A stretch of 64,000 bases of DNA from Deltaproteobacteria bacterium CG11_big_fil_rev_8_21_14_0_20_47_16 (GTDB lineage: Bacteria > UBA10199 > GCA-002796325 > 1-14-0-20-47-16). Positions 2,438 to 6,675 of this stretch are shown here, one piece after another (within the stretch, counting starts at the first letter, position 1; the number at the start of each line of letters is the position of its first letter). The position numbers and the translations under genes were made by a program. The notes below the pieces were generated by a model. It was not told the origin of the DNA. It ran no database searches and was given only the letters and a program-made list of their open reading frames with translations. The stretch is taken from contig PCXA01000001.1 of the NCBI GenBank assembly GCA_002796325.1, positions 260,838 to 324,837 of the forward strand, given 5' to 3'.

Positions 2438-2938
2438 ATGATGCCATTAATGTTGGGAGTAATGCTCACTACATCAACCATGCCTCAAGTTGGCCAAGTG
2501 GCACCGAATCTTCATGCAATGTCTACATCCGACAAAGTGATAACACTTTCAGAGCTGAAGGGCTCCTGGGTGGTGCTGTATTTTTACCCCAAAGCCTTTA
2601 CACCGGGTTGCACCAAAGAAGCGTGTTCGTTGCGCGACGGCTATTTTGGAATTCAAAAATTGGGTGCCGTAATTTTGGGTGTGAGTTTTGATAAAATCGC
2701 GACGCTTAAAAAGTTCAAAGCCGAATATCATCTGCCATTTGAATTGCTGAGTGACTCCGACAAAAGAATCGCCAAGGCTTACGATGTGGTTGGGTTGTTG
2801 GGTCTTTATGCAAAACGTAAAACCTTTATTATTGATCCCGATGGCAAAATCGCCTTCGTTTTTGATTCCGTTGATAGCGCGCATCATAATGCGGAAGTGA
2901 CCGAGAAGTTGAAGGCGTTAGTTGCAGCTTGGCAGTGA
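2438..2938 (+). CDS. bcp: thiol peroxidase Bcp (peroxiredoxin)
   Basis: YFYPKAFTPGCTKEAC motif and RBS AAGGAG. The catalytic domain may start at the internal MPQVGQ. Confidence 0.9.
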   Translation: MMPLMLGVMLTTSTMPQVGQVAPNLHAMSTSDKVITLSELKGSWVVLYFYPKAFTPGCTKEACSLRDGYFGIQKLGAVILGVSFDKIATLKKFKAEYHLPFELLSDSDKRIAKAYDVVGLLGLYAKRKTFIIDPDGKIAFVFDSVDSAHHNAEVTEKLKALVAAWQ

Positions 2939-3811
2939 TTGTGGCGATGTCCATTTTGTCAGTGCAACCCCACCAATAATAATGGCGGTGCCAACAAATG
3001 ATTGCCAATAGGGGATGCGATGTAAAAAGAGGGCATCAAGCACAATGGCGACAATGGGATAAAAAAAAGCAGCAGACGCAGTTGTTACGGTGCCCAATGT
3101 TTTAATGAGCTGGAACCAAATGATGTATCCCAAAACGATTACAACTAATGCCAGATATCCCATTGCAACCAGTGTTTGTGTGTCGCTGATTATAGTGGTC
3201 CACGTGGGCCACTTTTCGATGGCACGTGATAATATTGCAAGCATTAAAAATGCCGGGATCCCCTGATAAACAAGCAGTACCGAGCTGCTGACACGTTTTG
3301 TGATGGGATGCAAGATGGGTATGACAATACCAAAACTGATTGACGCACCCAGAATGGCGAGTAATCCCCATAGTTTGGTGTGAGAGTCCACCATTAATCG
3401 TGGTGATAGCACAAAAAGAATGCCGCAAAATCCCAATACGATGCCGATCCACTGTTGAAGGGTGGGTGAGGATGGTCGATCAAATAGTGGTTCAGCGAGT
3501 GTTGCAAAAATAGGGCTTGAGCAAAGAATGATTGCAGCGGGTGCTGGGGCCACTACGGTTTGTCCCCAAAAGATAAGTGCAGAGGGAATGGTTAAACAGA
3601 AAAATCCGGTCATCATGCATCGCATGGCCAGGTGTCCGCGGGGCCAATTGTTGCGATTGGTTTTCCATGCGTAGGGCAAAATCAAGAGTGTGGCGAGGCC
3701 AACGCGAATCATTGCACCAAAAATGGGTGGATAGGCGAGCACGACATAGTGAATGGCGAGAAAGCTGCTTCCTGTGATGAGTATGAGAAGAATGTAGAGG
3801 AGCGTGTTCAT
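2918..3811 (-). CDS. EamA/DMT family transporter
   Basis: Ten TM segments and a duplicated EamA architecture. The longer ORF extension to 3994 is non-membrane and overlaps the upstream gene. ATG at 3811-3809 overlaps the upstream stop as ATGA. Confidence 0.8.
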   Translation of the reverse strand: MNTLLYILLILITGSSFLAIHYVVLAYPPIFGAMIRVGLATLLILPYAWKTNRNNWPRGHLAMRCMMTGFFCLTIPSALIFWGQTVVAPAPAAIILCSSPIFATLAEPLFDRPSSPTLQQWIGIVLGFCGILFVLSPRLMVDSHTKLWGLLAILGASISFGIVIPILHPITKRVSSSVLLVYQGIPAFLMLAILSRAIEKWPTWTTIISDTQTLVAMGYLALVVIVLGYIIWFQLIKTLGTVTTASAAFFYPIVAIVLDALFLHRIPYWQSFVGTAIIIGGVALTKWTSPQSLPSCN

Positions 3812-4173
3812 AGTGATTGCACTCTTTTTGCCAGAGCCAGTTTCTGCTTGAGTTGCTTTGTTGTATATCTGCCATTTCTTGGTGTTAGTCGTTTGTAGTC
3901 TCTTAGAATTAGTTTTGCTCTTTTGTCTTTGATGAGGAGCCAAGGTAAAATTGATTCCATGAGGGCTAGAGCGGAGTTGCTTCTCAGTGTCCAAACATAA
4001 GAAGGAGTGTGATGGTTCTTATATACTTTCTTTAGATGTTGAAGTAGTCGAAGGCTGGTGTCGGCGACAGATATTTCGGGTGAGGGTGTTTGATTGCTAT
4101 GGTGACGTGATAAGGTGATTGTTCCTTCCCCATCAATAATGCCTGCAATGTAAGCAAGATCAGTCTTTGTCAT
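3808..4173 (-). CDS. LAGLIDADG-type homing-endonuclease-like protein (single-motif, 121 aa)
   Basis: N-terminal LAYIAGIIDGEGTI matches the LAGLIDADG/I-CreI motif LLYLAGFVDGDGSI, and the following alpha/beta pattern aligns with I-CreI. Translationally coupled to the EamA gene. Confidence 0.65.
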   Translation of the reverse strand: MTKTDLAYIAGIIDGEGTITLSRHHSNQTPSPEISVADTSLRLLQHLKKVYKNHHTPSYVWTLRSNSALALMESILPWLLIKDKRAKLILRDYKRLTPRNGRYTTKQLKQKLALAKRVQSL

Positions 4174-4210
4174 AAGTAATGCCTATTACACTGGCATTTA
4201 TTCGTCAAAA

Positions 4211-4247
4211 TCAAAAGCCCCTGCAACATAGGTTGCAGGGGCTTTTT
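4211..4247 (-). terminator. rho-independent terminator following ssrA exon 2
   Basis: gcccctgcaac / gttgcaggggc stem followed by a U-run on the minus strand. Confidence 0.7.
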
Positions 4248-4841
4248 GTGGAGGTGGGGGGACATGTGTTCCCGCGACTTTCGTTGCGGCATGGACTATC
4301 TCTTCATCCCAAAATCTGGGAGCTCAGCGTATTATGATGGACATAAATTTGCGTTGTCGCAGCATCCATCATCTTACAGTCTCTGCAGGGCTTTTGAATT
4401 TCATTACCCCTCAGGATTGCCCGTCTCTATTGAGGTGTGGGTTTCCCTGATATAAGCCGAGTTTTGCAATGGAAGTTGCCTTCCATGTCGACCAACTGAT
4501 CGAACCCCCGTCCGAAGACCTTTCATGCAATCATCTACGCAAGTAGTCCGTATTTTGTTTGGCAGTTGTAAGCTTCTACGAACAAAATTTTACAACCGCG
4601 AGCCCCGGCATATTCTCGCCAACACGCCCCGAGACAGAACGTGAAAGCCAACCCGCTGTCGGCGGTTCACATCTCCTAGCAGGTGGTCAGAGAGGAACCG
4701 TTAGCAGGGTTTTAGGCTGCTAAGGCAAAGTCAACGTTATCGTTGGCATTTGTGTTTTTTCCCGGCCAGTTTTGCGACTTGATTGGGTTGGTCGTTGCGC
4801 CGATTACACTACGGTGCCCCCGTCGAAACCGGTGCACCCCC
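4248..4841 (-). ncRNA. ssrA: tmRNA (ssrA) interrupted by an intron: exon 1 4499-4841, exon 2 4248-4262
   Basis: 5' end GGGGGUGCACCGGUUUCGACGGGGG resembles the tmRNA tRNA-like 5' end. Tag ORF ...GCC AAC GAT AAC GTT GAC TTT GCC TTA GCA GCC TAA encodes ANDNVDFALAA. Pseudoknot-rich body. The 3' T-arm GGACGGGGGUUCGAU is completed only by exon 2 UCCCCCCACCUCCAC. The spliced product has a 7-nt T-loop UUCGAUU, a 5-bp T-stem, an acceptor pairing with G3:U70, and is 357 nt. Confidence 0.85.
4263..4498 (-). other. group I intron (236 nt) in the tmRNA T-loop
   Basis: Exon U before the 5' splice site pairs as U·G with IGS GGUCGA (P1). The intron ends in G. P2 is a 7-bp hairpin with a GCAA tetraloop. The R-like element CAGAGACUG and S-like element AAGAGAUAGUCC (consensus AAGAUAUAGUCC) form P7. 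Confidence 0.75.
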
Positions 4842-4891
4842 GTCATCTCAATGAACTTCCTCCAGTATAGGATTGACAAGTGTTTCCGGGC

Positions 4892-4920
4892 AAGCAACTT
4901 CTGCTAAGAATTGCCGATAA
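4892..4920 (+). promoter_or_regulatory. sigma-28/FliA-like promoter motif AGCAACTTCT-N10-GCCGATAA
   Basis: -10-like GCCGATAA at 4913-4920, 17 nt before the ATG at 4938. Same bipartite motif as five other sites in the window. Confidence 0.5.
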
Positions 4921-4937
4921 TAGTATGTGGAGGAATT

Positions 4938-6221
4938 ATGTTAAGTGGTGAATTTGGGGATCCAAGATTATTCTTAGAATTCATGAAGTTAGGTGTTGGT
5001 TTGCTTGCGGATCGGAGTGGTGCCTTCCTACCCAAAAGCCGTACCCGTCCCGTGGTACAGGCCTGGCTTGCGCCACACCTGGATTCCTATAAGCAAGACT
5101 CACGGGCTAAGGCAGAGGGAGCTCCCTTTTTGCGTCGTGCGGAAATTGCGCTTTGCACCGGTACGGTGGGCTTCTTTGCACAATCTGCTGCTGCGTTAAT
5201 CGATTCGGTGGGACAGGCACTCACACAAGAAACGCCTGCAAAAGCATTACTGCGTACGGTTGAAGATATTGCGAATAGCACAGTTCATTTAACAGCTGGT
5301 GGTATCCGACTTGTGGTGCATCCCTCCCAAAATGACTATGACAATATGCTTGCCGCGACAGAAATTGCATGGTCGGTCGGTGCAGCTTACTACACAGCTA
5401 AGTCTGCTGGGAATGGAATGAATCAATTTAAAATGCCTGACTTGTCTCCAATGCCTGTCACCACAGATGGTGTGGCAATGGCTTCTACAGGTTTCTTTGC
5501 TGGTGAGAGACCCAATATATTTGCTGGCCCTTTGCTCATGGCCGCAGATGGCTCTGCTCCAAACGCAGTTGACCTTTTAGGAGAAGAGCTAGAGCACTTG
5601 GATCGCACAACTGTAGGACCATCAACTGAAGTTGGTTCGCATATTGTGGGTCCATGGAAAGTGCGTCTGGAAGCGTTACATGAAAGATTAATCTCATTTT
5701 TGGGATTGCGCCCTGATCAAGCCATTGTTGTTGAAATGGGTCCAGGTCCACAACACCGCATGATCAAGACGCTTGCACCAAGGGTGAGAAAATATATTGC
5801 TGTTGAGCCCCAACTATATTGTGCAAAGGCACTCGAGAGGTTGACTAGCAATTTAGAATGGGGAGATCGTCTCATTGTTTTTGGATCAGAGCTTTGGGAT
5901 ATACCCATAAGGACGTTTGCGGAAGGTGGCGCTGATATTGTGTATGCGTCTCATCCGCATCATGCAACCTCCAACAGTTGGGTGGGAATGGGTGTTGCGC
6001 CCCATAATCCCGTAAAATTAATTGATGCCTTAGGTGAAGGTGTTCGTGATGGCGGATTTTTAGTCATTCAAACAGATGATGCGGCATATGCTGCTGCTGT
6101 AACAAGTGGTGCTTCCCGTTGGCGCCCAGTGTTTGTGAAGCAGATCACCGAACCGTTCATGCCATCCATTCATTTTATAGAAACGGATCATATCATCGTG
6201 CTGCAGCGCATGGCTGAGTAG
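4938..6221 (+). CDS. hypothetical protein with C-terminal Rossmann/methyltransferase-like region
   Basis: RBS GGAGG is 7 nt upstream. VVEMGPGPQ...AVEP resembles SAM-MTase motifs I and II. No confident family assignment. Confidence 0.55.
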   Translation: MLSGEFGDPRLFLEFMKLGVGLLADRSGAFLPKSRTRPVVQAWLAPHLDSYKQDSRAKAEGAPFLRRAEIALCTGTVGFFAQSAAALIDSVGQALTQETPAKALLRTVEDIANSTVHLTAGGIRLVVHPSQNDYDNMLAATEIAWSVGAAYYTAKSAGNGMNQFKMPDLSPMPVTTDGVAMASTGFFAGERPNIFAGPLLMAADGSAPNAVDLLGEELEHLDRTTVGPSTEVGSHIVGPWKVRLEALHERLISFLGLRPDQAIVVEMGPGPQHRMIKTLAPRVRKYIAVEPQLYCAKALERLTSNLEWGDRLIVFGSELWDIPIRTFAEGGADIVYASHPHHATSNSWVGMGVAPHNPVKLIDALGEGVRDGGFLVIQTDDAAYAAAVTSGASRWRPVFVKQITEPFMPSIHFIETDHIIVLQRMAE

Positions 6222-6222
6222 T

Positions 6223-6675
6223 TCACCCTCTTTTACGCACAACCCGTGCCATTTCCCGATTGGTCTCACGCTTCTTGATGTCGTCGCGCTTGTCGTGCGT
6301 CTTTTTGCCTGCACCCAATGCCATTTCAATTTTGACACGACCATTTTTAAAATACATCTTGGTGGGAACGAGGGAGAGGCCCTTTTGTTGAAGTTGACCA
6401 ATGAGGCGCTGCAATTCGCGTTTGTGCACAAGCAGCTTTCGCATGCGCATGGGCTCATGGCCGGTGTAGCTGGCAGCCTTGTATTCACCAATGTGGCAAT
6501 TCACCAACCAGAGCTCACCCTTGTGCAACATGCCATAGGCATCGCCTAGGTTGGCTTTGCCGTCACGCAGTGATTTGACTTCGCTTCCCATAAGCACAAG
6601 CCCCGCTTCAAATTTGTCGCTTAAATGAAAGTTAAATCCGGCCTTGCGGTTCAATGAAATGATTTTTTCAGCCAT
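6223..6675 (-). CDS. smpB: SsrA-binding protein SmpB
   Basis: MAEKIISLNRKAGFNFHL...GSEVKSLR...ELWLVNCHIGEYK...LLVHKRE signature and the KKRD-rich tail. Confidence 0.9.
   Translation of the reverse strand: MAEKIISLNRKAGFNFHLSDKFEAGLVLMGSEVKSLRDGKANLGDAYGMLHKGELWLVNCHIGEYKAASYTGHEPMRMRKLLVHKRELQRLIGQLQQKGLSLVPTKMYFKNGRVKIEMALGAGKKTHDKRDDIKKRETNREMARVVRKRG

Follow-up and report, generated by a model that had tools for sequence, protein, structure and literature searches.

A LAGLIDADG endonuclease-like family associated with intron-bearing ssrA genes and its deletion-bearing member in a groundwater bacterium

Why does a gene for a small LAGLIDADG endonuclease-like protein of 121 amino acids (aa) stand directly behind ssrA, the gene for transfer-messenger RNA (tmRNA), in a genome whose ssrA is interrupted by a group I intron that has no open reading frame (ORF) of its own? 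The locus lies in a 64,000-nt stretch of DNA (positions 260,838-324,837 of contig PCXA01000001.1, here called the window; coordinates count from its first nucleotide) of the groundwater metagenome-assembled genome (MAG) 'Deltaproteobacteria bacterium CG11'. Introns of this kind have been reported for tmRNA genes of 21 phyla, with an internal LAGLIDADG gene in 36 of 883, and the survey in question does not mention endonuclease genes in the flanks; since such an internal gene is missing from 96% of them, it is unclear how they spread (PMC11915505). The answer that we favour, with a probability of roughly 0.6, is that the gene belongs to an I-CreI-like family that is at home in the 3' flank or the interior of tmRNA T-loop introns, and that the copy in the window is inactive and decaying.

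The N-terminus of the encoded protein reads MTKTDLAYIAGIIDGEGTITL, and its motif LAYIAGIIDGEGTI aligns with the motifs of I-MsoI and I-CreI, E16 occupying the position of D20 in I-CreI. The protein matches PHROG 5046 (E = 7e-19) and gives 21.8 bits (E = 2e-4) with Pfam LAGLIDADG_3 (PF14528; cut-off 22.5) and 14.3 bits with PF00961 (cut-off 23.1). A search of NCBIfam returned no match to it, and a sequence search of the PDB yielded motif-level matches only, so that a fold search was needed. The AlphaFold model, with an overall predicted local distance difference test (pLDDT) score of 88.9, was matched by Foldseek to I-CvuI, I-MsoI and I-CreI with a probability of 1.0 and template modelling (TM) scores of 0.76-0.82, at sequence identities of 17-22%. 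The sub-threshold Pfam score is peculiar to the window copy; its intact relatives pass. Thus P0002, a full-length protein encoded at locus L005 and 79% identical to that of the window, scores 23.8 bits on PF00961 and 22.5 bits, exactly the cut-off, on PF14528, the protein of locus L045 scores 33.4 and 30.0 bits, respectively, and the protein of locus L035 lies above the Pfam cut-off with 25.3 bits. The 172 homologues found in the databases are typically 135-136 aa long, and many of them carry precomputed PF00961 or PF14528 matches. Residues D14, G15, E16 and G17 are invariant in alignments of 20 and 31 homologues, as are K82, H55 and a C-terminal LTPRNGRY across the family, and the model of P0002 (pLDDT 94.5) has an alpha-beta-beta-alpha-beta-beta-alpha core, running a1, b1, b2, a2, b3, b4 and a3-a5. 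Judged from sequences and models, this is a family of compact (~135 aa), single-motif, putative endonucleases of the I-CreI type. The preliminary description of the locus, made from the sequence of the window alone, had proposed just such an identity for the 121-aa ORF; the fold match, the PHROG match and the Pfam scores of the intact homologues bear it out, and the resemblance is more than chance, even though the window copy itself stays below both Pfam cut-offs.

Distant free-standing homologues of the same family (PHROG 5046), with 28-39% identity along almost their whole length, are found in phages. Most of them, e.g. NC_041927.1:74393-74797 and MK376956.1:5991-6398, are annotated as 'HNH endonuclease' or even as 'DNA methyltransferase', labels that look wrong.

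The distribution of the family points to its partner. A scan with one genome per species produced 310 loci encoding relatives, the best 80 of which were examined, and in 59 of these the gene lies less than 220 nt from an intron-bearing ssrA or inside the intron. Three arrangements account for them. In Clostridia and other Firmicutes the gene is convergent to ssrA and 38-100 nt from its 3' end, the ssrA carrying a 250-460-nt insertion in the T-loop after UUCGAU (35 loci, 31 + 4). In Gammaproteobacteria, other proteobacterial MAGs and one Nitrospiraceae MAG it is on the same strand, 48-219 nt past an ssrA with such a T-loop insertion (21 loci, 17 + 4). In the remaining three loci, all from Elusimicrobia, the intron itself houses the gene, in the interval from J6/7 to J8/7; the proteins encoded by these internal copies (L035, L011 and L040) have ~133-136 aa and share 40-44% identity with that of the window, and the L035 copy occupies the J6/7-J8/7 interval of a 654-nt intron. 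Protein clusters track these arrangements. The recurrent linkage to ssrA thus identifies the intron-bearing tmRNA gene as the conserved partner of the family, and what the preliminary description had called unusual in a bacterial chromosome turns out to recur in dozens of species. The breadth of the association is apparently undescribed: literature searches returned no account of a flanking endonuclease gene at ssrA, although their coverage was incomplete, so that this absence is not proof.

Outside the clade of the window, RF00028, the Rfam group I intron model, did not reach E <= 1e-3 on the insertions, and these were judged instead by boundary and motif criteria. A J8/7-P7 motif stands ~40 nt from the 3' end in 47 of 54 insertions (those of 51 species loci plus the close relatives L002-L004), and all 54 end in G.

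In ~11 more of the 80 loci, the majority of those that have no ssrA within 3 kb, a displaced remnant of an ssrA 3' end (…CGCCTCCACCA) with a terminator hairpin adjoins the gene. Nine loci from Clostridium (L001, L014, L019, L025, L027, L032, L041, L050 and L065) have a remnant ending in …TCGCCTCCACCA and a terminator hairpin ~30-70 nt past the endonuclease stop codon, on the opposite strand, and no ssrA within 1-3 kb. These remnants look like old ssrA 3' ends that were displaced by islands integrating into ssrA. In four gammaproteobacterial loci a second, intron-less copy of the T-loop-to-CCA segment, (GGG)TTCGATTCCCGCCGCCTCCACCA, of 21-26 nt is found 20-60 nt past the endonuclease stop (L045:3431-3456, L074:3443-3466, L069:3473-3496 and L085:~3445-3465), and intron, exon 2, terminator and endonuclease gene are there bracketed by ssrA 3'-end sequence. 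The spare copy may be the displaced 3' end of the recipient or a homology arm for the cassette; the window contains no second copy of this segment. Three other loci are irregular. In L067:2995-5288 an intact intron-less tmRNA gene (4941-5288, 195 bits) adjoins what is left of an endonuclease gene, a frameshifted C-terminal part within ORF 4590-4904; 1.5 kb away, past a gene for a 291-aa protein, there follow the 3' part of the intron, exon 2 and a second endonuclease gene, which is intact and encodes 137 aa. The locus is rearranged and may show intron loss. In the Nitrospiraceae MAG (L056:1650-1941) a second tmRNA-like match of 39 bits, below the gathering score, lies ~330 nt upstream of the intron-bearing ssrA and may be a partial duplication. 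Finally, a group II intron domain (RF01998, 47 bits) was found in Clostridium collagenovorans (L012:4449-4542, minus strand) ~1 kb from the homologue, at a locus with no ssrA remnant.

Four close relatives of the window gene (L002-L005), from other metagenomes and with proteins 66-79% identical by BLASTP, show what is conserved around it. In L002, L003 and L004 the gene begins 75-77 nt past an intron-bearing ssrA; downstream of it there is an acetyltransferase gene, a YcxB gene or genes of no known function. This bears on the neighbour on the other side of the window gene, which encodes an EamA-family transporter and whose ATG (3811-3809) overlaps the TGA of the endonuclease gene (3810-3808) in the sequence ATGA. 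The overlap, noted in the preliminary description, agrees with our coordinates, and with both genes on one strand it could denote a two-gene operon with translational coupling and a transport-linked role, the small protein having been domesticated. That arrangement, however, is seen in none of the four close relatives; the lone EamA gene near one of them (L003) is on the other strand and has no sequence similarity to that of the window; and the neighbour that is conserved across the 80 other species loci is ssrA. Moreover, the last residues of the window protein are replaced relative to all relatives exactly where EamA abuts, which points to a rearrangement. We have therefore rejected the operon, which appears very improbable, on the ground that the adjacency is not kept in close relatives. 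Since each of these has other downstream genes, EamA is an accidental neighbour, and its abutment is most likely an accident of rearrangement.

Additional members of the clade of the window were retrieved with SmpB, the protein partner of tmRNA, at 79-85% identity (79-87% for the clade as a whole), which allowed presence and absence of intron and endonuclease gene to be compared within one clade. Both are present in the window, in L002 and L004, and in L003, whose contig does not include smpB. L086 shares the ssrA and its intron (50.4 bits with RF00028) but has no endonuclease gene, its similarity to the window stopping at the U-run of the terminator, and L087 has neither: its ssrA (137 bits) is intron-less, with the intron precisely absent. 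The fourth state, an endonuclease gene beside an intron-less ssrA, was not found among the genomes of this clade that were sampled. The orthologous locus without the intron also proved to be without the gene; the preliminary description had suggested this comparison as a check, and its outcome favours a mobile element. A metagenome scan with a tmRNA pattern specific to the clade gave no match.

The T-arm of L087 (2660-2690) reads GAGGG-UGCGAUG-CCCUC versus the usual GGGGG-UUCGAUU-CCCCC. This variant T-loop, GAGGGTGCGATGCCCTC, could represent a target that resists cleavage; two of the Elusimicrobia loci, L011 and L040, likewise have T-loops with TGCGA.

Among the five genomes of the clade that carry the endonuclease gene, with SmpB proteins 83-87% identical, dN/dS is 0.04-0.10 at dS > 1, i.e. 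at saturation. Such low ratios together with the divergence of SmpB imply that the gene has long been kept with the locus under constraint, and by this sequence comparison it appears to have been inherited with ssrA under purifying selection in the lineage of the window. The same record would suit the main rival reading, a protein co-opted by the host, either as a trans-acting maturase or chaperone for splicing of the tmRNA intron or as a DNA- or RNA-binding factor at ssrA. Some LAGLIDADG proteins do act as maturases for their own introns, and the invariant C-terminal LTPRNGRY could be read in the same sense. Pure maturases, however, usually lack the catalytic acidic residue, which is invariant in this family, and in L086 the same intron persists although its locus has no endonuclease gene. 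In Clostridia the gene has often been parted from ssrA by island insertion, which would be odd for a dedicated cofactor, even if action in trans is possible. Internal endonuclease genes are likewise rare, at 36 of 883 tmRNA introns, in a survey that does not address flanking genes (PMC11915505). On balance we hold co-option to be decidedly unlikely and return to a homing endonuclease family, of which the window gene would be a damaged member.

The damage, which the preliminary description had overlooked, consists first of all in the loss of 11 residues (KKxxGxGxIxK) that follow Leu47 and are present in every homologue. An alignment of the DNA with that of L002-L005 resolves it as a clean 33-nt in-frame deletion between AAGAAA microhomologies. 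The deleted stretch corresponds to residues 48-58 of P0002, i.e. the last part of helix alpha2, a loop and strand beta3, and includes a near-invariant Gly and a near-invariant Ile. Accordingly placed in the structure models, the loss leaves three strands and a truncated alpha2 in the window protein, with pLDDT values of 61-69 at the scar, and the four-stranded DNA-binding sheet, present in the P0002 model, is incomplete. A length of 121 aa is unique to the window among the complete copies (~85 loci; modal length 135-136 aa). An assembly artefact was considered as the source of the deletion and rejected, because NCBI, JGI and Logan assemblies, which are independent, contain the identical 121-aa sequence. 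In terms of its modelled structure, then, the window protein is an incomplete homologue of the family.

Damage extends to the region upstream of the gene. In L002-L005 the ssrA terminator is followed straight away by TTGACG-17-TATAAG/A and, as read from the alignment, by a GTG or ATG start codon 6-9 nt later; the sequence suggests a promoter-like element and a near-leaderless transcript for the endonuclease gene in these relatives. The segment TTTTGATTTTGACGAA directly 3' of the terminator is invariant in the window (4174-4212, minus strand), in L002 (4255-4310) and at the equivalent positions of L003-L005, and a 2-nt deletion in the window destroys the -10-like hexamer of the element. The promoter scanner did not report TTGACG-17-TATAAG because it accepts only -10 hexamers whose sixth base is T. 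In the window, the ATG is immediately preceded by a small hairpin (AATGCC…GGCATT).

Could the 121-aa protein nevertheless be an active homing endonuclease that tolerates the deletion and mobilizes the intron and the ssrA locus? Its ORF is intact, the catalytic E16 is kept, as is each invariant residue that the deletion has not removed, the same sequence occurs in several assemblies, and both the overall confidence of the model and its similarity to I-CreI-type enzymes (see above) are high. Against this, the DNA-binding sheet has lost a strand of its four, along with the near-invariant Gly and Ile, the confidence of the model falls at the scar, no other complete copy in ~85 loci is so short, the conserved promoter-like element of the relatives is broken and the C-terminal residues have been replaced. 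Continued activity thus seems unlikely to us. From its sequence and the models, the window copy is most likely inactive and degenerating, at a late stage in the life cycle of a homing element, and it should be annotated neither as an active enzyme nor as a member of an EamA operon.

The tmRNA gene itself, to which these observations refer, is split between a long exon 1 and a very short exon 2 (Table 1). Rfam RF00023 matches it at 4497-4833 on the minus strand (112 bits, E = 1e-43), and RF00028 matches the intron at 4272-4508 on the same strand (44.8 bits, E = 7e-9; gathering score 50). With ARAGORN, neither the window nor the loci of the intron form gave a tmRNA; in the window the program was blinded by the intron, and the intron-form genes were located by Rfam together with motif and pairing searches instead. 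Exon 2 comprises the last base of the T-loop, the 3' strands of the T-stem and the acceptor stem, and the discriminator A; by pairing rules it restores the T-stem as well as an acceptor stem with G3:U70. The intron ends in G, and splicing would join GGACGGGGGTTCGAT to TCCCCCCACCTCCA in the 3' region of ssrA. The intron-less relative L087 aligns with the window up to 4499 and resumes at 4261, which confirms the exon boundaries, since the alignment breaks at the predicted exon ends. The window thus holds an ORF-less intron with an RF00028 match and exact boundaries; ssrA and intron are 93% identical to those of L002-L004, one of whose introns scores 54.5 bits with RF00028. We rejected an alternative layout, in which the intron would be longer and enclose the endonuclease ORF, with the true exon 2 farther downstream, as there is a single copy of exon 2 in the window and the breakpoints of L087 match.

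Table 1. Coordinates of features at the ssrA locus of the window.
Feature	Position	Strand	Evidence or remarks
smpB	6223-6675	-	tmRNA partner gene; served as bait for same-clade genomes
436-aa ORF	4911-6221	+	between smpB and ssrA, opposite strand to both; no Pfam match
ssrA promoter-like site TTGCCC-18-TATACT	4864-4893	-	promoter scan; same site in L002
ssrA exon 1	4499-4841	-	tRNA-like 5' end, tag ORF ANDNVDFALAA, pseudoknots, 5' half of T-arm
Group I intron, ORF-less, 236 nt	4263-4498	-	in tmRNA T-loop, after UUCGAU
ssrA exon 2, 14 nt, UCCCCCCACCUCCA	4249-4262	-	pairing search
ssrA intrinsic terminator	4209-4242	-	11-bp G+C-rich stem (4242-4217), then U-run
Terminator-to-ATG spacer	4174-4212	-	contains TTGACG (4208-4203)
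LAGLIDADG homing endonuclease-like gene, 121 aa	3808-4173	-	ORF list, Pfam, PHROG, fold match, homologues
Deletion junction (33 nt, in-frame)	4030-4036	-	after Leu47; protein and DNA alignments, models
EamA-family transporter gene	2918-3811	-	Pfam EamA, E = 1e-27; not a conserved neighbour

Since the endonuclease ORF starts beyond exon 2 and the terminator, it lies outside the intron; as had been described, it is a free-standing gene on the strand of ssrA. The distance of 75 nt given at that time also stands, but it runs from the 3' end of the tmRNA (4249) to the ATG (4173) and not from the terminator, whose hairpin lies within those 75 nt; the ATG is therefore ~43 nt past the stem and ~35 nt past the U-run. 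The stem of the terminator shows pairing-preserving changes in L002-L005 (one-sided changes from G-C to G-U and one double change). On the other side of ssrA, the gap between smpB and ssrA is only ~70 nt in the relatives L002, L004 and L086, for which reason the 436-aa ORF of the window looks like an insertion specific to its lineage. Sub-threshold or marginal matches to RF04321 (tmRNA_permuted) were seen at 4712-4915 of the window (minus strand) and over the same region in L002-L004 and L024; they appear to be cross-matches to the 5' part of standard or intron-form tmRNA rather than permuted genes.

How might such a gene move the intron next to it? An intact homodimer would cut those ssrA alleles that have neither the intron nor the endonuclease gene, at or near the insertion site in the T-loop, for which a homodimer is suited because this segment is conserved and inherently an inverted repeat. 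A genome that carries the intron would be protected, as the intron splits the target. In repairing the double-strand break, the cell would then copy as one unit the intron, the 14-nt exon 2, the terminator and the endonuclease gene next to it, a process of trans or 'collaborative' homing. From the endonuclease ATG to the insertion site there are 325 nt in the DNA of the window and 89 nt in an intron-less allele; trans homing would work here because, in spliced coordinates, no more than ~90 nt separate the gene from that site. The idea that the enzyme mobilizes the ssrA intron in trans, put forward when the locus was first described, is supported in this form at the level of the family, by its linkage to intron-bearing ssrA and by the polymorphism within the clade, but not for the window copy, which is probably a non-functional deletion derivative. 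Trans homing of tmRNA introns fits the data; such homing is known from phages, and we found no description of it for tmRNA introns.

Several points weigh against our interpretation. The T-loop insertion site as the target is deduced from linkage alone in these sequences, and outside the clade of the window the group I nature of the introns depends on position, boundaries, motifs and the literature. The sample of the clade is small, with five genomes that carry the endonuclease gene, one with the intron only and one empty. Strong purifying selection over saturated dS exceeds what the simplest model of a selfish gene that later decays would predict, and it leaves room for a role that benefits the host. 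As to the window copy, its reading frame is still open, and beyond the deletion none of the invariant residues, the catalytic Glu included, has been lost; outside residues 41-60 its model is confident, so that inactivity, however probable on the models, is not proven.

More tentatively, and at somewhat less than even odds, we suggest that flanking LAGLIDADG genes, and not the rare internal ones, are a main engine by which ORF-less tmRNA T-loop introns have spread through many bacterial phyla, with intron, exon 2, terminator and endonuclease gene entering the T-loop as one block. If so, this would be the first case of collaborative homing that is chromosomal, involves an RNA gene and employs a LAGLIDADG enzyme, and it would explain why only 4% of tmRNA introns have internal endonuclease genes. 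A LAGLIDADG family just outside ssrA offers a concrete and easily testable answer to the question of how the introns spread, and collaborative homing, described for a few phage cases, would come to include bacterial chromosomes and an RNA gene. The small size of the proteins (~135 aa) and their near-universal putative target make the family a candidate scaffold for engineered meganucleases, and its members are useful as a marker in the annotation of ssrA-linked islands.

I-CreI, I-MsoI and I-CvuI are homodimeric enzymes of algal chloroplast rRNA introns. The family described here has in common with them a single LAGLIDADG helix with its catalytic acid and the same core, followed by C-terminal helices. 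Unlike these intron-encoded proteins of 150-170 aa, however, its members have ~135 aa and shorter beta-hairpins and are free-standing, and the window copy is without beta3. The phage genes of PHROG 5046 are homologous to the family and likewise small and free-standing, but reside in phage genomes.

The closest known parallels are phage gene pairs, in which free-standing endonucleases are established agents of collaborative or trans homing, namely F-CphI with the ORF-less psbA intron of cyanophage S-PM2 and MobE with the nrdB intron of T4 (PMC3984707, PMC2790892). As in those pairs, a highly conserved gene is interrupted by a group I intron that is ORF-less or defunct, a free-standing endonuclease gene lies near enough to it for recombination, intron-only and empty states coexist among relatives, and by analogy the logic would be the same, with the intron shielding the allele that carries it and the endonuclease mobilizing both. 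The ssrA case differs from them in that it is located on bacterial chromosomes and the host gene specifies a structural RNA; in that the enzyme, known here from sequence and models, would be a LAGLIDADG homodimer rather than an Endo VII-like or HNH protein; and in that the arrangement recurs across several phyla in two orientations. The LAGLIDADG genes previously found inside tmRNA introns (PMC11915505) share with the window gene the host gene, the insertion site after UUCGAU and the protein family, whereas the window gene and most of its relatives lie outside the intron, past exon 2 and the terminator, either on the strand of ssrA, as in Proteobacteria, the Nitrospiraceae MAG and the clade of the window, or convergent to it, as in Clostridia.

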